Origin: Escherichia coli
GTDB lineage: Bacteria; Pseudomonadota; Gammaproteobacteria; Enterobacterales; Enterobacteriaceae
NCBI RefSeq assembly: GCF_045037415.1
Contig: NZ_CP173438.1
Strand: one strand, 5' to 3'
Length of the DNA stretch: 64,000 nucleotides
The position numbers and the translations under genes are program-made. Shown here in pieces: positions 3,041 through 48,022 of the stretch. Under the pieces are notes generated by a model. The model saw nothing but the letters and a program-made list of their open reading frames with translations. It made no database searches and was not told the origin of the DNA. Every line of letters starts with the position of its first letter. Positions within the stretch are counted from its first letter, which is position 1.

Positions 3041-4318
3041 TTACTTGCTGCTAGCCATTGCGGGGGCGCTATCAGCAGTACGAATTTTTTGGAACAGCAA
3101 AAAGGTAAAGATGATCACCATGCCAAGCGCCGCCATGCCCATTAGCCACATGTTGCGATAGGCTTCTGCAGCGGGCAGGGTGTCTTGCCAGTAGCCGATA
3201 ATCGGGTAAACGAAGACATCCGGCAGGAATCCAATCACCGAACAAATACCTACCGTGGTGCCCATAATGTAAGACGGTGTTCTCGCTTCGCCAGGGCAGG
3301 CCCAGTACAGCCCGCGTGAGGCGTAACAGGTGAATCCCAGTAATAAAATCAAGCCAATCCCCATCGCGACCGATTGCGGGTTAGAGTTCGTGACGAGCAG
3401 GGCTGTCAACGCCAGCAAACCGATGATGGAAAGGATTTGGACCACGCGGGTAGGGGATTTCACTTTACTGTAGGTGGTGATAATGCCGCCAAGTGGGCCG
3501 CACAGCGCGCGGAAGATTTTGTTGATCACAATCCCCATGTAGCTCGCCGCCACCAGCGACATGCCGTACATTTCGGTCAGATAGTTGGTGGAGTAACTCA
3601 GAATGGCGTAGATGGTGAAGACACCAAAAATCACCATGCTGCAATACCAGGTAGTGCTGATGCGCAAAACGGCCAGGATGTCGCTAAGCTGGAATGACTG
3701 TTTTTCTTCGTTATTGGCACTGCGTAGGTTGTTGTTATCGCTAACAAAAAACCAACACAAAATGCCCAGCAGAATGTAAACCACACTATAGATAATAATG
3801 ACCGTTTTCAGGCTGGCGCTGTCATCCGGTGCAAAGCGAGAAAAGACCCACATGGTAAACACCGCCAGCGACATTACACCGACGCCGCGCAGCCCTTCCA
3901 TCCAGCCCATAATTTTCCCTTGCTCGCTATGATCGCCCAGCAACGATGCGGCTTTAATCGACACCGACCACAGCATTAAAATCGTCGTTATCGCAAAGGC
4001 GACCTGAATACAGAGCATTACCCACAGCGGTGGATATGTTGCCATTAACAGACCCAGTAATCCGGTAATGATCATCGCGGAAGTAATCATTTTGCGATGT
4101 GAAAATTTATCGGCAATAACGCCGCTAGGGGCATAGAAAATAATGGCCGCAATACCAAAGGTACTCATTATTAAACCTATCTCGGTATTGCTGAATCCCA
4201 TAAATTTTGCCATGGGAATTTGATAAATATAACGTAAATAAGCCAGGTCGAAACTAACGCCGCCGCTAAAACTAATTATCGCGAGGGTTATCCAACGGCG
4301 ATATGAGTTGTGTTGCAT
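3041..4318 (-). CDS. yqcE: MFS transporter
   Basis: 425-aa ORF, about 12 hydrophobic segments; 26 bp upstream of ygcE, likely co-transcribed. Confidence 0.85.
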   Translation of the reverse strand: MQHNSYRRWITLAIISFSGGVSFDLAYLRYIYQIPMAKFMGFSNTEIGLIMSTFGIAAIIFYAPSGVIADKFSHRKMITSAMIITGLLGLLMATYPPLWVMLCIQVAFAITTILMLWSVSIKAASLLGDHSEQGKIMGWMEGLRGVGVMSLAVFTMWVFSRFAPDDSASLKTVIIIYSVVYILLGILCWFFVSDNNNLRSANNEEKQSFQLSDILAVLRISTTWYCSMVIFGVFTIYAILSYSTNYLTEMYGMSLVAASYMGIVINKIFRALCGPLGGIITTYSKVKSPTRVVQILSIIGLLALTALLVTNSNPQSVAMGIGLILLLGFTCYASRGLYWACPGEARTPSYIMGTTVGICSVIGFLPDVFVYPIIGYWQDTLPAAEAYRNMWLMGMAALGMVIIFTFLLFQKIRTADSAPAMASSK

Positions 4319-17399: not shown

Positions 17400-17800
17400 T
17401 TCCGGCATTTAAAGGTGAACATCGCAGGGAAAATTAACAGGTATAGAATGGCATTGGGTGCTTGAGGCTGTCTGGCGTTAAGCATTCGCAAGGTTCCAGA
17501 TGGACAAAAGCCCCAGGCGATATTTCTATCAACCTGAGGCTCGCGTTCGAACGTAGCAATTCGGATGTTAGTCTCTTCTTTGCAGGGAGGCAAGACATGC
17601 TGACAAAATATGCCCTTGTGGCAATCATCGTACTGTGTTGTACAGTACTGGGATTCACGTTGATGGTAGGCGACTCGTTGTGTGAGTTGAGTATCAGAGA
17701 ACGTGGTATGGAGTTTAAGGCAGTTCTCGCTTACGAATCGAAGAAGTAGCCACCACGCGGGGTAAAACCCCGCGTACTGAATTGTGATGGTTTGGCCTCC
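17400..17800 (+). other. hok/sok-type type I toxin-antitoxin locus (antisense Sok RNA expected on the minus strand over the hok leader; not mapped)
   Basis: Contains a Hok-family ORF with an in-frame upstream mok-like extension and a 3' GC hairpin (CGCGGGG-TAAAA-CCCCGCG, 17756-17774). Confidence 0.55.
17597..17749 (+). CDS. hokX: Hok/Gef-family membrane toxin (50 aa)
   Basis: [50 protein letters not shown]: one transmembrane helix plus conserved SLCE...AYES Hok signature; symbol assigned because the hok homologue next to cysH is, as I recall, the hokX/sokX locus. Confidence 0.65.
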
Positions 17801-37876: not shown

Positions 37877-40438
37877 TTACACCAGACTCTTCAAGCGATA
37901 AATCCATTCCAGCGCCTGACGCGGAGTCAGTGAATCCGGGTCGAGGTTTTCCAGTGCCTCGACCGCAGGCGAAGTTTCTTCCGGTACGGACAGCAAAGAC
38001 ATTTGTGTACCATCCACTTGCGTAGCAGCGGCGTTCGGCGAAATGCTTTCCAGCTCACGCAGTTTTTGCCGTGCGCGCTTAATAACCTCTTTTGGCACAC
38101 CCGCCAGAGCTGCAACCGCCAGGCCGTAGCTTTTGCTCGCCGCGCCATCCTGCACGCTATGCATAAAGGCAATGGTGTCGCCGTGCTCCAGTGCATCGAG
38201 ATGCACGTTGGCGACGCCTTCCATTTTCTCCGGTAACTGGGTCAGCTCGAAATAGTGGGTAGCAAACAGCGTCAACGCTTTGATCTTATTTGCCAGATTT
38301 TCCGCACACGCCCACGCCAGCGACAGACCATCGTAAGTGGACGTTCCACGCCCGATCTCATCCATCAACACCAGACTATATTCGGTGGCGTTATGTAAAA
38401 TATTGGCGGTTTCGGTCATCTCCACCATAAAGGTTGAACGCCCGGAAGCCAGATCATCCGCAGCACCTACGCGGGTAAAGATACGGTCAATCGGGCCAAT
38501 CTCGACTTTTTGCGCCGGTACGTAGCTGCCGATATACGCCATCAGCGCAATCAACGCGGTCTGGCGCATATAGGTACTTTTACCGCCCATGTTCGGACCG
38601 GTAATGATCAACATGCGACGCTGCGGCGACAGGTTCAGTGGGTTAGCGATAAACGGCTCATTCAGTACTTGTTCAACTACCGGATGGCGACCTTCGGTAA
38701 TACGAATGCCAGGTTTATCAATGAAGGTCGGGCAGGTATAGTTCAGGGTATAGGCCCGTTCCGCCAGGTTCACCAGCACGTCGAGTTCCGCCAGCGCGCT
38801 CGCGCTCTGTTGCAACGCTTCCAGATGCGGCAACAGCAGGTCGAACAGCTCTTCATAAAGTTGTTTTTCCAGAGCCAGTGCTTTGCCTTTTGAGGTGAGA
38901 ACTTTATCTTCGTACTCTTTTAGCTCTGGAATGATGTAGCGCTCGGCGTTTTTCAGCGTCTGGCGACGCATGTAGTTGATTGGTGCCAAATGGCTTTGCC
39001 CACGGCTGATTTGAATGTAGTAGCCGTGCACCGCATTAAAGCCAACTTTCAGCGTGTCCAGGCCGGTACGTTCACGCTCGCGGACTTCCAGACGCTCCAG
39101 ATAATCGGTCGCGCCGTCAGCCAGCGCGCGCCACTCATCCAGCTCTTCGTTATAGCCCGATGCGATAACACCACCGTCGCGTACCAGCACCGGTGGTGTG
39201 TCGATGATTGCTCGCTCCAGCAGATCGCGCAGCTCGGCAAACTCGCCCATCTTCTCACGCAGCGCTTGTACCGGTGCACTATCGACATTTTCTAACTGCG
39301 CACGCAACTCCGGCAGTTGCTGGAAAGCGTGACGCATACGGGCCAGATCGCGTGGGCGAGCGGTACGCAACGCCAGACGCGCCAGAATACGTTCCAGGTC
39401 GCCCACCTGACGCAGTACCGGCTGCAGCTCGGCGGTGAAATCCTGCAATGCGCCAATAGTTTGCTGACGCTCAAGCAACACGCGGGTATCGCGCACTGGC
39501 ATATGCAGCCAGCGTTTCAACATACGACTACCCATCGGCGTTACAGTGCAGTCGAGCACTGAAGCCAGCGTATTTTCCGCACCGCCGGCCAGGTTCTGAG
39601 TAATTTCCAGGTTACGACGCGTCGCGGCATCCATAATGATGCTGTCCTGCTGACGTTCCATAGTGATAGAACGGATATGCGGCAGGGTCGTGCGTTGGGT
39701 ATCTTTCGCATACTGCAACAGACAACCGGCAGCACAAAGTCCGCGTGGTGCGTTCTCCACACCAAAACCGACCAGATCTCGGGTGCCAAATTGCAGGTTC
39801 AATTGCTGGCGAGCGGTGTCGATTTCAAACTCCCACAGCGGGCGACGACGCAGGCCGCGGCGACCTTCAATCAGCGACATCTCGGCGAAATCTTCTGCAT
39901 ACAGTAATTCCGCTGGATTCGTACGTTGCAGTTCTGCCGCCATCGTTTCGCGGTCCGCCGGTTCGCTCAGGCGAAAACGACCGGAACTGATATCCAGCGT
40001 TGCGTAGCCGAAACCTTTACTGTCCTGCCAGATAGCCGCCAGCAGGTTGTCCTGACGTTCCTGCAACAGCGCTTCATCGCTGATGGTGCCCGGCGTAACG
40101 ATACGGACAACTTTGCGCTCGACCGGCCCTTTGCTGGTCGCCGGATCGCCAATCTGTTCACAAATAGCGACGGATTCGCCCTGATTCACCAGTTTGGCGA
40201 GGTAGTTTTCCACCGCATGGTAGGGAATCCCCGCCATCGGGATTGGCTCTCCCGCTGAAGCACCGCGTTTGGTCAGTGAAATATCCAGCAGTTGCGACGC
40301 CCGTTTTGCGTCGTCATAAAACAGTTCATAAAAGTCGCCCATCCGGTAAAACAGCAGGATCTCGGGATGCTGGGCTTTCAGCTTGAGATACTGCTGCATC
40401 ATGGGCGTATGGGCGTCGAAATTTTCTATTGTACTCAT
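37877..40438 (-). CDS. mutS: DNA mismatch repair protein MutS
   Basis: 853-aa ORF; Walker [10 protein letters not shown]; N-terminal mismatch-binding domain. Confidence 0.97.
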
Positions 40439-40723: not shown

Positions 40724-41068
40724 ATGTCCGGCAAGCGTATCTCTCGTGAAAAACTGACGATTAAAAAAATGATCGATCTTTATCAAGCGAAATGCCCGCA
40801 GGCGTCAGCAGAGCCGGAGCATTACGAGGCGTTGTTTGCTTACGCGCAAAAGCGGCTGGATAAATGTGTGTTCGGCGAAGAGAAACCAGCCTGTAAGCAG
40901 TGTCCGGTGCACTGTTACCAGCCTGCAAAGCGTGAAGAGATGAAACAGATTATGCGTTGGGCCGGGCCGAGAATGCTGTGGCGTCATCCGATCTTAACCG
41001 TGCGTCATCTCATCGATGACAAGCGTCCGGTGCCGGAGTTGCCAGAAAAATATCGTCCAAAGAAATAA
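40724..41068 (+). CDS. ygbA: nitrosative-stress-induced protein YgbA
   Basis: 114-aa ORF; Cys-rich (CPQ...CKQCPVHC); divergent from mutS. Confidence 0.85.
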   Translation: MSGKRISREKLTIKKMIDLYQAKCPQASAEPEHYEALFAYAQKRLDKCVFGEEKPACKQCPVHCYQPAKREEMKQIMRWAGPRMLWRHPILTVRHLIDDKRPVPELPEKYRPKK

Positions 41069-41106
41069 ATCTGCCGGAGAGCCATACTCTCCGGCAAATA
41101 CGGCGC

Positions 41107-41535
41107 TTACGCTTTGGTGGCAATCAGGATGGCTGATGCTTTGATCAATGCAATAACGCGCGAGCCAGTGGTGAGTTTCATTTCATCCTGACTTTCATTT
41201 GTTACCACTGCCACAATTTCAAAACCCGCATCCGTTTTGATATGGACAGTGGCGTTCACTGCGCCTTCGGTGATTGTCGACACGCTGCCAGCAAACTGGT
41301 TGCGAGCAGAGAATTTCAGTCCACAGTCTTCCGTTGCCAGCGTTACCCACGGGGCTTTAATCAGGGCAATCGCTTCTTTCCCTTTCGCCAGACCCAGCGC
41401 TTGCTGGCTGCTGTGAGTCACAATTGCCACCAGCTTTGCACCACCTGCCAGCGTCAGTTCTACTTCGTCATTCACCGCGCCCATTGCTACTGCGCTAACT
41501 GTTCCGGTTAATTGATTTCTTGCTGAAACTGCCAT
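41107..41535 (-). CDS. tandem Mop/TOBE-domain molybdate-binding protein (molbindin)
   Basis: 142 aa from the ATG at 41535, preceded by AAGGAGG; two repeated Mop domains (ARNQLTGTVSAV... and ARNQFAGSVSTI...); starts 44 nt after the fhlA stop on the same strand. Confidence 0.7.
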   Translation of the reverse strand: MAVSARNQLTGTVSAVAMGAVNDEVELTLAGGAKLVAIVTHSSQQALGLAKGKEAIALIKAPWVTLATEDCGLKFSARNQFAGSVSTITEGAVNATVHIKTDAGFEIVAVVTNESQDEMKLTTGSRVIALIKASAILIATKA

Positions 41536-41579
41536 ACTGCCTCCTTTCATTGAATGTTGATCGAGTATAACCACATCTG

Positions 41580-43658
41580 TTAAATCAATGCCGATTTATC
41601 AATTCCCAGTCGCTTCATTCGTGACAGCAGAGTCGTGCGTTTCAGCCCCAGACGTTGCGCAGCGCCTTTAGGCCCGGCAACCACGCCGTTTGTTTCTTTC
41701 AGCACGCGAACAATCAACTGATATTCATCTTCGCCCTCCTGGGCGACAACCGTTGCGGCAGGCGGCGTTTCAGGTTCTGGTAAAGCAATATCTGGCAATG
41801 ACAGCTGCAGCACGTTGCCGCGTGTTAGCAATACCGCGCGCTCGATGACGTTTTCCAGCTCACGCACGTTGCCCGGCCATTCCATGTTGCTCAGGATGCG
41901 CAGCGTCTCGGCAGGAATGCTGTCGATATTGCGCCCCAGACGACGGGCAATTTTGAAGGTAAAGGCTTTCGCCAGCAGCGGAATATCTTCCGGACGCTCG
42001 CGTAGTGGCGGCAGGTGGATCGGGAATACGTTCAGGCGGTAATAGAGATCGCTACGGAACTCTCGGTCGGCGACCATTTTTTTCAGATCGCGGTTAGTCG
42101 CGGCAATTAAACGTACGTCCGTCTGAATGATTTTGTTGCTGCCGAGACGTTCAAACTCCTGTTCCTGTAATACACGCAGCAACTTCGGCTGTAACTCCAG
42201 CGGCATATCGCCCACTTCATCGAGGAATAGTGAGCTTTTATCCGCCAGTTCAAAACGACCAATGCGCTGAGCGCTGGCACCGGTAAAAGCCCCGCGCTCA
42301 TGACCAAATAGATCGCTTTCCAGCAATCCGGCAGGCATCGCCGCGCAGTTCATTTTGACCATGCGGCGATTATTACGCCCACTGAGATTATGGATCGCGC
42401 GGGCAATCAGCTCTTTACCTGTACCAGTTTCACCGAGGATCAGAACGGTACTGTCACTTTGCGCCACCATTTCAACTTGTTTAAGTACGCTGTACATGGC
42501 TTCGCTGCGGCCAATAATCTCGCCAAATTCACTATCAACATTGTTGAGCTGCTCGGTCAGGGCGAGGTTTTCATCAACCAGCCGTTCTTTCAGACGATGA
42601 ATTTCCTGATAGGCGAGGGCGTTATCGACAGCGATTGCCACACGTTCGGCAATCTGGCGCAGTAAATTCAGATTGGTAGTGGTAAAGACTTTCTCTTCGC
42701 ATTGCGCCAGTTTCAGTACGCCCAGCATGGTGTCGCCAGACATCAGCGGTAACAGGCACAAGGTTTGAATCTGATTGCCCCAGGTGTTGAACAACATGCG
42801 TTCATAGGGGGCTAAATCGTCCCGCTCGTGGAGATTAATCAACAGCATCTCTTTACTTTTGAAGACGCGTTCGGTGAGGGTTCCGGCTTCATCGACTTCG
42901 CTCTGTTCGTGAGCGGGATGCTGTTTATCAAGATAGTGAGTGGAGTAGATGTTGAGTTTGTTCTTACGGTGGCTGCGTAAGACGATGCTGATATCGTCAA
43001 TGTCGAAGTAGTAGTGGATTTCTTTGGCGACTTCGCTGACCAGTTCGTCCATATCCAGGCGGGAAAGCACCGCGTTAGTGATGGCGACCAGGATGCGGAA
43101 GTTATCGCGTTCCCGGCATAACAACTCATAGTCGACATTGTTAACGACGCGGCTCTGGATTTGTTCGGTGACGACAGAAACGATCTGCGTAAATGTTTGC
43201 AGACGATTGAACTCTTTTTCGCTCCAGGGGCGATCGTCATAACGAATAAATTCACAGCCACCAAAAATATGCCCTTCCGCCGCCAGTGGCATCAGGCAAT
43301 AGTGACCAAATTTGGGGTATAGCCCACCTGTGGCCAGCTGCGGCCAGGTTTCACAAAATTCTTCGTAACTGCAATGCAGCGTATCAGGGCGCGACAAAAT
43401 GCTGCGTACCGGACCGTGTGCCAGAACAGTTTCGTCTTCATATTTAATGGGGGTGTCTTTTTCACGCGATGCGTAATAAGACGCACGTTGAGTCTGCGCT
43501 TGCCACAACACAATCGCCGCGTTGTCGGCGAGCGCAGAACGCTTTACCAGTTGCGAAAGAGCCTCACACAGCGAGGCCAGATCGGGCTGCTGCAATAGTG
43601 TCCGAGTGATGTCGAACAACCCTTGCTGTCCGAGATCACTCATCGGTGTATATGACAT
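41580..43658 (-). CDS. fhlA: formate hydrogenlyase transcriptional activator (sigma-54 dependent)
   Basis: 692 aa from the ATG at 43658; GAF domains; AAA+ sigma-54 interaction domain ([14 protein letters not shown]); C-terminal HTH. Confidence 0.95.
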   Translation of the reverse strand: MSYTPMSDLGQQGLFDITRTLLQQPDLASLCEALSQLVKRSALADNAAIVLWQAQTQRASYYASREKDTPIKYEDETVLAHGPVRSILSRPDTLHCSYEEFCETWPQLATGGLYPKFGHYCLMPLAAEGHIFGGCEFIRYDDRPWSEKEFNRLQTFTQIVSVVTEQIQSRVVNNVDYELLCRERDNFRILVAITNAVLSRLDMDELVSEVAKEIHYYFDIDDISIVLRSHRKNKLNIYSTHYLDKQHPAHEQSEVDEAGTLTERVFKSKEMLLINLHERDDLAPYERMLFNTWGNQIQTLCLLPLMSGDTMLGVLKLAQCEEKVFTTTNLNLLRQIAERVAIAVDNALAYQEIHRLKERLVDENLALTEQLNNVDSEFGEIIGRSEAMYSVLKQVEMVAQSDSTVLILGETGTGKELIARAIHNLSGRNNRRMVKMNCAAMPAGLLESDLFGHERGAFTGASAQRIGRFELADKSSLFLDEVGDMPLELQPKLLRVLQEQEFERLGSNKIIQTDVRLIAATNRDLKKMVADREFRSDLYYRLNVFPIHLPPLRERPEDIPLLAKAFTFKIARRLGRNIDSIPAETLRILSNMEWPGNVRELENVIERAVLLTRGNVLQLSLPDIALPEPETPPAATVVAQEGEDEYQLIVRVLKETNGVVAGPKGAAQRLGLKRTTLLSRMKRLGIDKSALI

Positions 43659-43731: not shown

Positions 43732-44742
43732 TTAGCATATACGCGGAAGCGGTTCGGCGTGCGGTAGATCGAGGGTTCGTTTCACGCCATACAGACCGGC
43801 AAGACGAACACCTTTACGTTCTACTACTTCGCCAATCAGCGCCGCATCTTTTCCCAATGGATGGGAATGTAACGCCGCCAGCACTTGCTCTGCTGCGTTG
43901 CGTTCAACGGCGATCACCAGTTTGCCTTCGTTGGCAAAGTTAAGGGCGTCCAGTCCCAGCAGTTCGCAAACGCCGCGCACAGCAGGTTTAACCGGCAGTG
44001 CCGCTTCTGAAAGTTCAATACCACAACCGCAGGCTGCCGCGAACTCATGAACCACCGCGTTTACACCACCACGGGTGGCATCACGCAGCGCTTTCACGCC
44101 GGGAATGTCACGCAGCGTCTGAATAAGCGGCGCCAGCACCGCGCAGTCGCTGACCAGTTCTCCATCCAGCCCTAGTTGCTCACGCAGGTTAAGGATAGTC
44201 GCCCCATGGTCGCCGAGTGTACCGCTAACCAGCAATACATCGCCTGCGGTTAGCGTCTGTGCGCCCCAGTGAATATTCGCCGGAATTGCGCCCATGCCAG
44301 CGGTGTTGATAAACAGTTTATCTGCCGCGCCGCGCTGTACCACTTTGGTGTCGCCAGTAACGATGGCAATGCCTGCCGCACGGGCGGTTTCTGCCATGCT
44401 GGTCACTACGGCTTTCAGTGTCTCCATCGGCAATCCTTCTTCGAGGATAAAGCCACAGGAGAGATAGCGCGGAATTGCGCCACTGACCGCAACGTCATTG
44501 GCGGTGCCGCAAATCGCCAGCTTGCCGATATTACCGCCAGGAAAGAACAGCGGGTCAATGACGTAACTGTCGGTGGAGAACGCCAGACGGTCGCCTTCCG
44601 CTACCAGCTGTGCCAAATCAAGACGGGCCTGATCTTCCTGCTCTGCCAGCCACGGGTTGGCAAAGGCTTCCATAAACAGGCTGTTGATTAATTGCTGCAT
44701 CGCCTGGCCGCCGCTGCCGTGGGCGAGTTGGATATTATTCAC
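43732..44742 (-). CDS. hypE: hydrogenase maturation protein HypE
   Basis: 336-aa ORF; C-terminal PRIC motif. Confidence 0.95.
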   Translation of the reverse strand: MNNIQLAHGSGGQAMQQLINSLFMEAFANPWLAEQEDQARLDLAQLVAEGDRLAFSTDSYVIDPLFFPGGNIGKLAICGTANDVAVSGAIPRYLSCGFILEEGLPMETLKAVVTSMAETARAAGIAIVTGDTKVVQRGAADKLFINTAGMGAIPANIHWGAQTLTAGDVLLVSGTLGDHGATILNLREQLGLDGELVSDCAVLAPLIQTLRDIPGVKALRDATRGGVNAVVHEFAAACGCGIELSEAALPVKPAVRGVCELLGLDALNFANEGKLVIAVERNAAEQVLAALHSHPLGKDAALIGEVVERKGVRLAGLYGVKRTLDLPHAEPLPRIC

Positions 44743-46998: not shown

Positions 46999-47349
46999 TC
47001 ACTCCTGGTCTATTTCTATCCGCCGAATCTGTAAACCGTCGTCTGCCACAATCTGTAGCATGTCACCATGACACTGTGGACAGCGGCGGACGCGCTGGGT
47101 CAGTAGCGTCACATACTGTTGGCATGTTTCACACCAGCATTCGGCCTCTTGTTCTTCGAGGTGCAGTTTACAACCTTCCGCCACGCTGCCGCGGCAAACC
47201 AGATCAAAACAAAAGGCAAGAGAGCTGGTTTCGACACAAGAAAATGCGCCAATTTTGAGCCAGACCCCAGTTACGCGTTTTGCGCCGTGTTTTGCGGCCT
47301 GCTGTTCGATCAATTCCAGTGCCCGTTGGCAGAGGGTTATTTCGTGCAT
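46999..47349 (-). CDS. hypA: hydrogenase nickel-insertion protein HypA
   Basis: 116 aa from MHEITLCQ, preceded by GGGAGG; zinc site CETC...CPQC. Confidence 0.9.
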   Translation of the reverse strand: MHEITLCQRALELIEQQAAKHGAKRVTGVWLKIGAFSCVETSSLAFCFDLVCRGSVAEGCKLHLEEQEAECWCETCQQYVTLLTQRVRRCPQCHGDMLQIVADDGLQIRRIEIDQE

Positions 47350-47380
47350 ATCGCCTCCCATTAACTATTGCCAGCTACAA

Positions 47381-47396
47381 GCAATAATTGCGCCAG
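47381..47396 (-). promoter_or_regulatory. sigma-54 promoter for hypA (-24 TGGCGC / -12 TTGCT)
   Basis: Reverse complement reads CTGGCGCAATTATTGCT with GG and GC at the canonical spacing. Confidence 0.5.
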
Positions 47397-47421
47397 TGTT
47401 GATTATCCCTGCGGTGAATAA

Positions 47422-47460
47422 TGTCGATGATGTCGAAATGACACGTCGACACGGCGACGA
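47422..47460. promoter_or_regulatory. candidate FhlA upstream activating region shared by hyp and hyc promoters
   Basis: Cluster of TGTCGA / TCGACA hexamers (TGTCGATGATGTCGAAATGACACGTCGACA) between the two divergent sigma-54 promoters. Confidence 0.35.
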
Positions 47461-47508
47461 AATTCATCTTTAGCTTAGAAATCGCTTTAATAACAATGAA
47501 TTAAAAGT

Positions 47509-47524
47509 TGGCACAGAAAATGCT
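47509..47524 (+). promoter_or_regulatory. sigma-54 promoter for hycA operon (-24 TGGCAC / -12 ATGCT)
   Basis: TGGCACAGAAAATGCT with GG/GC at canonical spacing, about 40 nt upstream of the hycA ATG. Confidence 0.5.
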
Positions 47525-47560
47525 TAAAGCTGGCATCTCTGTTAAACGGGTAACCTGACA

Positions 47561-48022
47561 ATGACTATTTGGGAAATAAGCGAGAAAGCCGATTACATCG
47601 CACAGCGGCATCGTCGCCTACAGGACCAGTGGCACATCTACTGCAATTCGCTGGTTCAGGGGATCACGTTATCGAAAGCGCGCCTGCATCACGCCATGAG
47701 CTGCGCGCCGGACAAAGAACTCTGTTTCGTCCTTTTTGAACATTTTCGCATTTACGTCACCCTGGCGGATGGCTTTAACAGCCACACCATCGAGTATTAC
47801 GTCGAAACAAAAGATGGCGAAGACAAACAGCGGATTGCGCAGGCGCAGTTGAGCATTGACGGCATGATTGATGGCAAGGTCAACATCCGCGATCGCGAAC
47901 AAGTTCTGGAACACTATCTCGAAAAAATCGCTGGCGTTTACGACAGCTTATATACCGCCATTGAAAACAATGTGCCGGTGAATTTAAGCCAACTGGTAAA
48001 GGGACAAAGCCCGGTAGCATGA
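47561..48022 (+). CDS. hycA: formate hydrogenlyase regulatory protein HycA
   Basis: 153-aa ORF; first gene of the hyc operon. Confidence 0.9.
   Translation: MTIWEISEKADYIAQRHRRLQDQWHIYCNSLVQGITLSKARLHHAMSCAPDKELCFVLFEHFRIYVTLADGFNSHTIEYYVETKDGEDKQRIAQAQLSIDGMIDGKVNIRDREQVLEHYLEKIAGVYDSLYTAIENNVPVNLSQLVKGQSPVA

Follow-up and report, generated by a model that had tools for sequence, protein, structure and literature searches.

The mop gene and its transcription

The 64,000 nt stretch of E. coli DNA analysed here (the window) carries on its minus strand an ORF which we call mop (41107..41535; ATG at 41535, stop at 41107-41109), identified from the ORF list and by homology as encoding a 142 aa ModG-like protein with two Mop domains. 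It lies downstream of fhlA (41580..43658, minus strand; stop TAA at 41580-41582), which encodes the 692 aa sigma-54 activator of formate hydrogenlyase (FHL) and was assigned from its ORF and the RefSeq annotation of an identical locus. The ORF boundaries leave an intergenic gap of 44 nt (41536..41579, minus strand), which contains a Shine-Dalgarno sequence, AAAGGAGG (41540..41547, minus strand), 4 nt upstream of the ATG. The convergent neighbour of mop is ygbA (40724..41068, plus strand), of the nitrous oxide-stimulated promoter family. An earlier sequence-only reading had described an ORF of 142 aa with two Mop/TOBE domains, on the fhlA strand and 44 nt past the fhlA stop codon, with a strong ribosome binding site, and both the coordinates and the features of this description hold. 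The product is entered in RefSeq as WP_000301062.1, 'TOBE domain-containing protein'. FhlA in this strain shares 99.1% aa identity with K-12 FhlA, and the last codons of ygbA differ from those of K-12 (114 versus 117 aa) as part of a polymorphic segment. Some GenBank records carry a 155 aa version of the mop product starting from GTG 41574. We rejected this start and placed it at ATG 41535, because homology to ModG and Mop proteins and the conserved Shine-Dalgarno sequence both begin there and not at the GTG; GGAGG ahead of this ATG is kept in most species examined.

A terminator scan identified an intrinsic terminator between the convergent mop and ygbA genes, with a hairpin of 14 pairs, GCCGGAGAG...CTCTCCGGC, followed by TTATTTCTTT (41069..41099, minus strand). 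This hairpin folds with -29.5 kcal/mol (z -4.47), and from the sigma-54 hyp promoter down to ygbA the minus strand has no other strong terminator. At the other end, just upstream of hypA (46999-47361 in the ORF list), pattern matching with 1 mismatch located a sigma-54-type -24/-12 element, TGGCGCAATTATTGCT (47380..47395, minus strand), which we take to be the promoter of the hyp operon, and which is the likely start of a hypABCDE-fhlA(-mop) transcript. The terminator scan found no terminator in the 44 nt fhlA-mop gap, and folding found no stable structure there (z-score +0.29); on these two results we rejected an attenuator or terminator in the gap. Since there is no terminator between fhlA and mop and a strong one after mop, read-through from hyp-fhlA into mop is expected. 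Same strand, short gap, shared downstream terminator and conserved gene order all fit an operon, and the suggestion in the sequence-only reading that fhlA and mop are co-transcribed thus appears plausible from the gap lacking a terminator, the terminator after mop and the order kept in other species. In this arrangement mop would be read through from the formate/FhlA- and FNR-controlled hyp-fhlA promoters, and we infer that the hairpin at 41069..41099 ends the mop transcript and, with it, the hyp-fhlA-mop transcript.

The gap also contains a candidate -10 element for a promoter of mop itself, GGTTATACT (41564..41572, minus strand), recognised by conservation, with TATACT at 41564-41569. TATACT is invariant in 10 sequences from Escherichia, Citrobacter, Pseudocitrobacter and Salmonella while neighbouring gap positions vary, and YTATAMT occurs in 16 of 49 distinct mop upstream regions (0.9 expected). 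A TG at 41573-41574 lies 2 nt further upstream than the TG of an extended -10 normally would, and no -35 is recognisable; a standard sigma-70 scan called no classical promoter with a -35 in the gap, where the -10-type element alone is conserved. The sigma-38 -10 consensus has been described as CTAtacT without a -35 (PMC3923258; PMC5650638). Boxes of the TATACT type also precede mop copies located elsewhere in Salmonella, Pantoea and Edwardsiella. In the island copies of Salmonella, homology starts only 38-62 nt upstream of the ATG, and in Lelliottia the order is fhlA, terminator, TGTTATAAAT, mop. Because this conserved -10-like box travels with translocated copies, mop probably has its own promoter as well, for which the box would serve as a -10 of sigma-S/sigma-70 type, and from which mop may be weakly transcribed in addition to read-through.

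Other regulatory sites were sought around mop. A sigma-54 promoter ahead of the gene was rejected, as nearby matches were at chance level and lay either within the ORF or antisense to it; sigma-54 sites that look genuine occur at 47380 and 47509 and belong to hyp and hyc. No ModE operator (TATAT-N7-TAYAT, at most 1 mismatch) was found near mop, and we also rejected a version with 2 mismatches seen by eye in a Citrobacter sequence and conserved in neither E. coli nor Salmonella. The only known RNA family in the window is sok (17456-17612), which is unrelated to mop.

A ModG-type molbindin

The mop product matched Pfam TOBE (PF03459) far beyond chance (E 8.8e-35) and TIGR00638 (Mop) with 142 bits (cutoff 55), in each case in two stretches. 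The two Mop/TOBE domains cover all 142 aa, leaving no DNA-binding, ABC ATPase or other partner domain. The NCBIfam ModE model NF007957 reached 88.1 bits (cutoff 369) and aligned only over profile positions 124-261 of 263, so that by profile search the protein lacks the ModE-type architecture of winged helix plus di-Mop. An AF2 monomer model (pLDDT 96.1) was all-beta with short helices. The best solved relative was ModG (1h9j; E 5e-33, residues 1-140 aligned to ModG 4-143), which was also the top Foldseek match for the model (TM 0.95/0.93, rmsd 1.4 A, 48% identity).

Oxyanion ligands in the Tub/Mop/ModE family are Ser4, Arg6, Ala20-Val21-Asn22, Ser40, Lys60 and Ala61 (PMC11980592). Using Tub numbering and allowing Ser or Thr at position 40, we found all of these in the first half of the mop product (S4, R6, A20-V21-N22, T40, K60, A61) and again in the second (S76, R78, A92-V93-N94, T112, K132, A133). 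Across 26 homologues with identities as low as 40%, each of these residues is either invariant or at least 90% conserved. Taken together, profile, model and ligand residues identify the predicted mop product as a cytoplasmic molbindin of the ModG type, consisting solely of two Mop/TOBE domains.

Azotobacter ModG (PDB 1h9j/1h9k/1h9m) is a cytoplasmic di-Mop molybdate-binding protein, a trimer with eight inter-subunit molybdate sites. Like ModG of Azotobacter vinelandii, the mop product has about 142 aa, two tandem Mop domains only and binding residues in both halves. By homology it probably forms a trimer, which corresponds to a Mop-domain hexamer and would hold molybdate, and probably also tungstate, in inter-subunit sites of two kinds. 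The Azotobacter modG gene reportedly lies within the mod locus and is regulated by ModE (Mouncey et al. 1996, as cited in PMC11980592), whereas mop sits behind fhlA with no ModE box near it. Such control is a trait of the Azotobacter gene and not of the family, and therefore limits a claim of orthologous function but not family membership. Moreover, E. coli lacks nitrogenase, and the protein must therefore serve another physiological client than Azotobacter ModG does.

ModE is a transcription factor that binds molybdate at its dimer interface. The mop product resembles the di-Mop domain of E. coli ModE (1h9s, 1o7l, 1b9m) in its two-Mop fold and its SARNQ and KAPWV motifs (34-36% identity, TM 0.88-0.90), but the N-terminal winged-helix DNA-binding domain of ModE is missing and the mop product cannot bind DNA alone. 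Each half also aligns residue for residue with the single-domain proteins (~70 aa) MopII of Clostridium pasteurianum (1gug), Tub of Eubacterium limosum (9beb) and Mop of Sporomusa (1fr3), with the same ligand-residue numbering. The inferred function, storage of oxyanions by six Mop domains arranged as a hexamer, is likewise the same, although fusion of two domains in one chain means that three chains, not six, would make up a particle. Literature searches by gene, accession, family and Enterobacteriaceae ModG found no publications on this gene or experiments on its protein; mop is a genuine but unstudied member of a well-known and well-understood protein family.

Conservation and loss of mop

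Among 49 species loci, mop directly follows fhlA in 36, with gaps of 31-101 nt, including those of E. albertii, E. fergusonii, Citrobacter, Klebsiella/Raoultella, Kluyvera and Pluralibacter. In three Phytobacter/Kosakonia genomes, which have no fhlA at this site, mop directly follows hypE. Free-standing, divergently transcribed orthologues occur in Serratia, Cedecea, Edwardsiella, Pantoea and Salmonella islands, which implies that the protein needs no FhlA or hyp in cis. The interval that holds mop is an insertion hot spot, in which sitABCD and other genes have been inserted after mop and never between mop and fhlA. With dN/dS of 0.02-0.09 against Escherichia, Citrobacter, Klebsiella and other species, mop is under strong purifying selection. 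Comparison of these gene orders identifies mop as the presumptive ancestral last gene of the hypABCDE-fhlA transcription unit in Enterobacteriaceae. A recent insertion or mobile element in this strain was rejected, because mop occupies this site in outgroups too, diverges in step with the species tree, and is present as one copy per genome and never on plasmids.

The gene is present in 1889 of 5426 complete E. coli genomes (about a third). To judge from the named strains in the hit lists, among its carriers are ST131, ST95-type APEC and ST648, all of them major extraintestinal pathogenic lineages, and strains without it include K-12, O157 and ATCC 8739. The divergent allele of ST648 differs by 10 synonymous and no non-synonymous changes, and its 44 nt gap is identical. 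The sequence-only reading had tentatively flagged the gene as absent from this position in K-12, and comparison with MG1655 bore this out: the stop codons of fhlA and ygbA lie 36 nt apart there, with only a hairpin between them. This hairpin, directly 3' of fhlA in K-12, is homologous to the mop terminator. The deletion junction is identical in K-12, O157 and G3/10, and the K-12-type junction is common to 3501 of the 5426 genomes (~65%). These comparisons point to one old deletion as the cause of mop loss in K-12 and in about 65% of sequenced E. coli; it would have taken the mop ORF and its 44 nt leader and left the terminator. Judged by the same comparisons, presence of mop is the ancestral state and K-12 the derived one, and the gene is not a strain-specific novelty. 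Its absence from K-12 also means that mop is dispensable.

Proposed function in molybdate handling

The most likely role of the mop protein, judged from its family and predicted binding sites, is that of a cytoplasmic molybdate/tungstate buffer. FDH-H is a molybdoenzyme. On balance we favour the reading that mop encodes a ModG-type oxyanion binder, forms the ancestral end of the hyp-fhlA unit lost in K-12, is transcribed both by read-through and from its own promoter, and buffers cytoplasmic molybdate as an accessory to FHL function. The protein would retain molybdate in the cytoplasm, so that upon fermentative induction a pool is kept ready for synthesis of the molybdenum cofactor of FDH-H and other molybdoenzymes, and its buffering may also shift the free molybdate seen by ModE. 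Such an accessory would not be essential. Full expression of fdhF and hyc needs ModE-molybdate along with FhlA and formate, and this dependence was described in K-12-type laboratory strains (PMC3149613). As these strains lack mop, mop is not required for the molybdate/ModE response of hyc and fdhF; and since they have active FHL, any contribution must be conditional, for example on molybdate limitation or tungstate exposure.

A less probable reading, though one we take seriously, is that the protein serves general molybdate homeostasis and has no particular relation to FHL, the adjacency of mop to fhlA being historical and most of its expression coming from the promoter of mop itself, for instance through sigma-S in stationary phase. 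The TATACT/CTATACT box ~30 nt upstream of the ATG, found also in copies away from fhlA, is consistent with this, as are the short upstream homology of the Salmonella islands, the Lelliottia terminator that separates fhlA from TGTTATAAAT and mop, and the orthologues of Serratia, Cedecea, Edwardsiella and Pantoea, which are monocistronic and transcribed divergently from adjacent genes. The two genes have also been lost separately, mop from K-12 and fhlA from Phytobacter. However, the fhlA-mop order has been kept across many genera despite the insertion hot spot, E. coli has no terminator separating the two genes, and mop still follows hypE where fhlA is missing.

We consider it improbable that the mop protein is a dedicated molybdate sensor or deliverer of the FHL regulon, tuning FhlA/ModE-dependent expression of hyc and fdhF or loading of FDH-H, a role that would apply at low molybdate or with tungstate present. 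The sequence-only reading had suggested a protein that could buffer or sense molybdate for this regulon, a proposal weakened by the free-standing orthologues, by the promoter-like box that moves with translocated copies and by the K-12-type strains that lack mop. Equally doubtful in our view, and decidedly so, is a regulatory sensor that modulates FhlA or ModE, for instance by forming hetero-complexes with the di-Mop domain of ModE or by passing molybdate on to FhlA or MoeA, and that thereby determines how hyc and fdhF transcription depends on molybdate. The tight conserved linkage to the activator gene, the similarity to the molybdate-sensing domain of ModE and the dependence of hyc and fdhF expression on molybdate, ModE and MoeA (PMC3149613 and its reference 52) all speak for a sensor. 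Against it, the molybdate response is known from K-12-type laboratory strains and K-12 lacks mop, the closest relative is the storage-type ModG and not ModE, there is no DNA-binding or other partner domain, and free-standing orthologues occur in loci without a nearby fhlA.

To our knowledge, Enterobacteriaceae are not tungsten users. That the protein is a tungstate sink, sequestering a poison of molybdoenzyme maturation and so shielding FDH-H and other molybdoenzymes in the gut, is very unlikely: Mop/Tub family proteins do take tungstate as well as molybdate, among gut species, ModG-type architectures have been predicted for more tungsten users than molybdenum users (PMC11980592), and the binding residues are the same as in Tub, but no tungsten-specific feature was identified and the locus holds nothing pointing to tungstate.

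If it does act as a molybdate or tungstate buffer, the mop protein could affect the activities of FDH-H and other molybdoenzymes where molybdenum is scarce in the gut or urinary tract, could shift the ModE set-point and could alter sensitivity to tungstate-based suppression of Enterobacteriaceae. The gene is an easy knockout or knock-in target, with an effect that we expect to be modest. As far as we know, all knowledge of molybdate control of formate hydrogenlyase stems from K-12-type laboratory strains. K-12, the basis of the regulatory model, appears to carry a derived loss of a gene that is kept in about a third of E. coli and in the majority of Enterobacteriaceae. If the mop protein were a dedicated FHL accessory, E. 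coli of the phylogroup B2/F type and most Enterobacteriaceae would handle molybdenum unlike K-12, and natural loss of mop would have rewired the response.

A two-domain Mop protein encoded next to fhlA

On the minus strand of the window, hypE (43732-44742) is followed by fhlA (41580-43658; 692 aa, 99.1% identical to K-12 FhlA), a 44-nt gap (41536-41579) and a 142-aa ORF with its ATG at 41535 and its stop at 41107-41109, here called the mop gene. A Shine-Dalgarno sequence (AAAGGAGG) lies 4 nt 5' of the mop ATG on the minus strand, and ygbA (40724-41068, plus strand) is convergent with mop, with mutS beyond. The position, strand, spacing, ribosome-binding site and size assigned to this gene by the sequence-only reading all agree with the ORF call and the sequence. 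A 155-aa version starting at GTG 41574, 5 nt past the fhlA stop, is annotated in some GenBank records; its extension (41536-41574, minus strand) is unconserved in other species, and this start was rejected. The window is E. coli chromosomal DNA, and at the locus it is 100% identical to that of strain SK1144 and O25b:H4-ST131 isolates. Elsewhere in the window (17456-17612, plus strand), the Rfam model of the sok antitoxin RNA (RF01794) matches over its full length (104 bits against a gathering threshold of 59), which implies a chromosomal hok/sok-type toxin-antitoxin locus.

Databases label the mop product as "TOBE domain-containing protein", "transporter", "molybdopterin-binding protein" or "molybdate transport system regulatory protein", and assign no gene symbol. 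The gene is not surprising in kind, as its family is known; for the gene itself and its linkage to fhlA we found no literature, in a search whose coverage of subscription journals was thin, so that such an absence is unproven.

Every sequence and structure test placed the 142-aa protein in the Mop/molbindin family with a ModG-type architecture. It contains two TOBE domains by Pfam (PF03459, E 8.8e-35) and two Mop domains by NCBIfam (TIGR00638, 142 bits against a cutoff of 55). The NCBIfam ModE and ModC models match it through their C-terminal Mop/TOBE parts only, far under their cutoffs, which excludes both an ABC ATPase and a regulator that carries a DNA-binding domain. Identity with ModE, the E. 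coli molybdate regulator, was rejected since the protein has no DNA-binding domain. The best match among solved structures was Azotobacter vinelandii ModG (1h9j, E 5e-33, aligned end to end), followed by the di-Mop domain of E. coli ModE (E 1e-15) and then by single-domain Mop and Tub proteins. An AlphaFold2 model built with 26 homologues was very confident (pLDDT 96.1, pTM 0.87) and superposed on ModG with a TM score of 0.95 and an rmsd of 1.4 Å at 48% identity, and on the ModE di-Mop domain with a TM score of about 0.88-0.90. ModG has the same two-Mop architecture, whereas the locus and apparent regulation of Azotobacter modG are unlike those of the E. coli gene.

In this family, the type-1 oxyanion site is formed by the backbone of Ala20-Val21-Asn22, and the type-2 site by Ser4, Arg6, Lys60 and Ala61 plus Ser40 from the adjacent subunit, as described in a 2025 paper on the Tub structure (PMC11980592). 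The ligand residues of the 142-aa protein are S4, R6, A20-V21-N22, T40, K60 and A61 in the first half (Tub numbering) and S76, R78, A92-V93-N94, T112, K132 and A133 in the second, and in an alignment of homologues with identity as low as 40% each of these positions is either invariant or conserved to 90% or more. Together with the likeness to ModG, this makes molybdate and tungstate binding, and assembly into a ModG-like trimer, well-founded predictions.

Distribution of mop and origin of the K-12 arrangement

The mop gene with its leader was found in 1892 of 5426 complete E. coli genomes, in single copy and always on the chromosome; 1889 of these matches span 80% or more of the query. Among the named carriers are ST131, APEC O18, APEC O2:K1:H4 and ST648, which presumably correspond to phylogroups B2 and F as far as these named strains go. 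The gene is absent from K-12, ATCC 8739, HS, O157:H7, an O22:H8 strain and G3/10, in all of which the junction is the same: the fhlA stop runs straight into a hairpin, beyond which comes the ygbA stop. This bore out the tentative suggestion of the sequence-only reading that the gene is missing at the K-12 position. A 69-nt probe spanning the junction matched in full in 3501 of the 5426 genomes, and the two alleles combined account for 5390.

The remaining genomes include secondary events. In FDAARGOS_1285 (NZ_CP070152.1; contig L067, 1788-2626), IS1A adjoins a truncated mop gene and nlpD lies on the opposite flank; the interval that elsewhere holds rpoS, mutS and ygbA is gone, an IS1-mediated deletion reaching from nlpD into mop, and this would be an rpoS/mutS deletion strain. 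One genome among the 5426 has a copy only 80-90% identical to that of the window, which may represent a diverged allele or one gained by horizontal transfer.

By sequence measures mop is evidently a real gene under selection. Its dN/dS was 0.02-0.09 wherever dS was unsaturated, against orthologues from E. albertii, a cryptic Escherichia clade, Citrobacter, Klebsiella, Kluyvera, Pluralibacter and others. The ST648 allele differs from the window ORF at 10 positions, all synonymous, and has an identical 44-nt leader. On an ST648 contig (NZ_CP008697.1), the annotation marks mutS and fhlA as pseudogenes with frameshifts, which may reflect assembly errors, and mop between them is intact with an identical protein.

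A survey of one genome per species gave 49 loci with mop. It lies directly 3' of fhlA on the same strand in 36, with gaps of 31-101 nt, including E. albertii, the cryptic Escherichia clade, many Citrobacter, Klebsiella/Raoultella, Kluyvera, Pluralibacter, Yokenella, Lelliottia, Kosakonia and Enterobacter; contigs of E. fergusonii, R. planticola and P. gergoviae have the same order. We infer from this that the order hyp-fhlA-mop is ancestral for the Enterobacteriaceae and that K-12 carries a derived deletion. The hairpin in K-12 is similar to that 3' of mop in carriers and in C. amalonaticus, which suggests that the deletion took the ORF and leader and left the terminator. No special signal marked the deletion junction in the comparison of the window with K-12, where the surrounding region is generally divergent: nucleotide identity is 97.3% for fhlA, 96.2% for hypE and 94.6% for mutS (window 37877-40438, K-12 contig L002, 877-3438). 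The mutS-rpoS region is a known recombination-prone mosaic, which the greater divergence of mutS may fit.

Extra genes, sitABCD among them, sit between mop and ygbA and never between fhlA and mop; the stretch from fhlA to mutS looks like a site of repeated insertion, always downstream of mop. In Raoultella planticola (contigs L008 and L009, 6626-10057) the insertion is a sitABCD-like Mn/Fe ABC transporter. Four other contigs (L024, L029, L031 and L034) carry insertions of about 4 kb at this position, close in size to that of R. planticola. In Phytobacter diazotrophicus, P. ursingii and Kosakonia sp. S29 (contigs L048, L053 and L060, around 3865-4001), fhlA is absent and mop lies about 130 nt past hypE; here the FHL activator has evidently been either lost or relocated, with mop kept at the hyp end.

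Copies away from fhlA also occur. Two from Salmonella enterica (L004, 6001-6429; L010, 5001-5429; 87-89% amino acid identity) lie in islands beside IS66/IS21 fragments and fimbrial usher genes, far from fhlA. Their homology to fhlA-linked loci starts 38-62 nt 5' of the ATG, holds a few remnant fhlA 3' codons, takes in a -10-like box and stops at the stop codon, so they look like translocated pieces of the fhlA-mop locus. In Serratia, Cedecea, Edwardsiella and Pantoea the orthologues stand alone in unrelated surroundings, each divergent from the genes beside it.

Transcription of mop

Three promoters are established for hypA-E and fhlA: a sigma-54 promoter that depends on formate and FhlA, an internal FNR-dependent promoter and a weak fhlA promoter. 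In the hypA/hycA divergent control region we found sigma-54-type -24/-12 elements at 47380-47395 (minus strand) and 47509-47524 (plus strand), with repeated TGTCGA/ATGTCGAAATGACACGTCGACA motifs between them (window 47380-47650), which we take to be as expected of FhlA upstream activating sites. A scan of the 44-nt fhlA-mop gap found no terminator-like site, and the gap has no stable RNA structure (fold z +0.29). Immediately 3' of mop lies a hairpin of 14 pairs (-29.5 kcal/mol, z -4.47) that ends in a T-rich tail; it is the only strong minus-strand terminator-like site from ygbA to the element at 47380-47395 upstream of hypA. Transcripts from the hyp and fhlA promoters should run on into mop.

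The gap also contains a candidate -10-like box (GGTTATACT, 41564-41572, minus strand). Its TATACT stands unchanged in ten sequences from Escherichia, Citrobacter, Pseudocitrobacter and Salmonella, in which the bases between box and Shine-Dalgarno sequence vary freely. YTATAMT is present in 16 of the 49 distinct 60-nt upstream regions, where shuffled sequences predict 0.9. TATAA-type boxes occupy the equivalent position in Pluralibacter-like genomes, Pantoea, Edwardsiella, Enterobacter soli and Lelliottia, the last with a terminator hairpin after fhlA and then the box. For sigma-38 promoters the reported -10 consensus is CTATACT, and they lack a distinct -35 (PMC3923258; PMC5650638); the E. coli mop box has T at -13, not the C of this consensus. 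No sigma-54 element or ModE box was found upstream of mop. The open gap, the 3' terminator and the conserved box lead us to think that mop is probably transcribed by read-through and also from a weak candidate promoter of its own. Co-transcription with fhlA, as first proposed, is plausible but incomplete as an account.

Probable function

The hyp-fhlA transcripts rise as cells ferment and make the molybdoenzyme FDH-H, and ModG, the closest characterised protein, stores and buffers molybdate in the cytoplasm. Storage of molybdate or tungstate is also what the single-domain relatives Mop and Tub do (PMC11980592), and full fdhF and hyc expression needs ModE-molybdate plus FhlA and formate (PMC3149613). 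The simplest reading is that the 142-aa protein would keep a cytoplasmic molybdate pool for cofactor synthesis during fermentation, and that this pool would indirectly alter the molybdate that ModE senses. For a direct regulatory role, as a partner of FhlA or ModE, we found nothing specific in support, and the same holds for a role as a tungstate sink. An essential or FHL-specific role has evidence against it, as K-12-type strains lack mop yet have functional, molybdate-responsive FHL, and the free-standing Serratia, Cedecea, Edwardsiella and Pantoea orthologues have no fhlA nearby. The mop gene offers a cheap experiment, and at the fhlA-mop locus K-12 is the odd one out, a reminder worth having.
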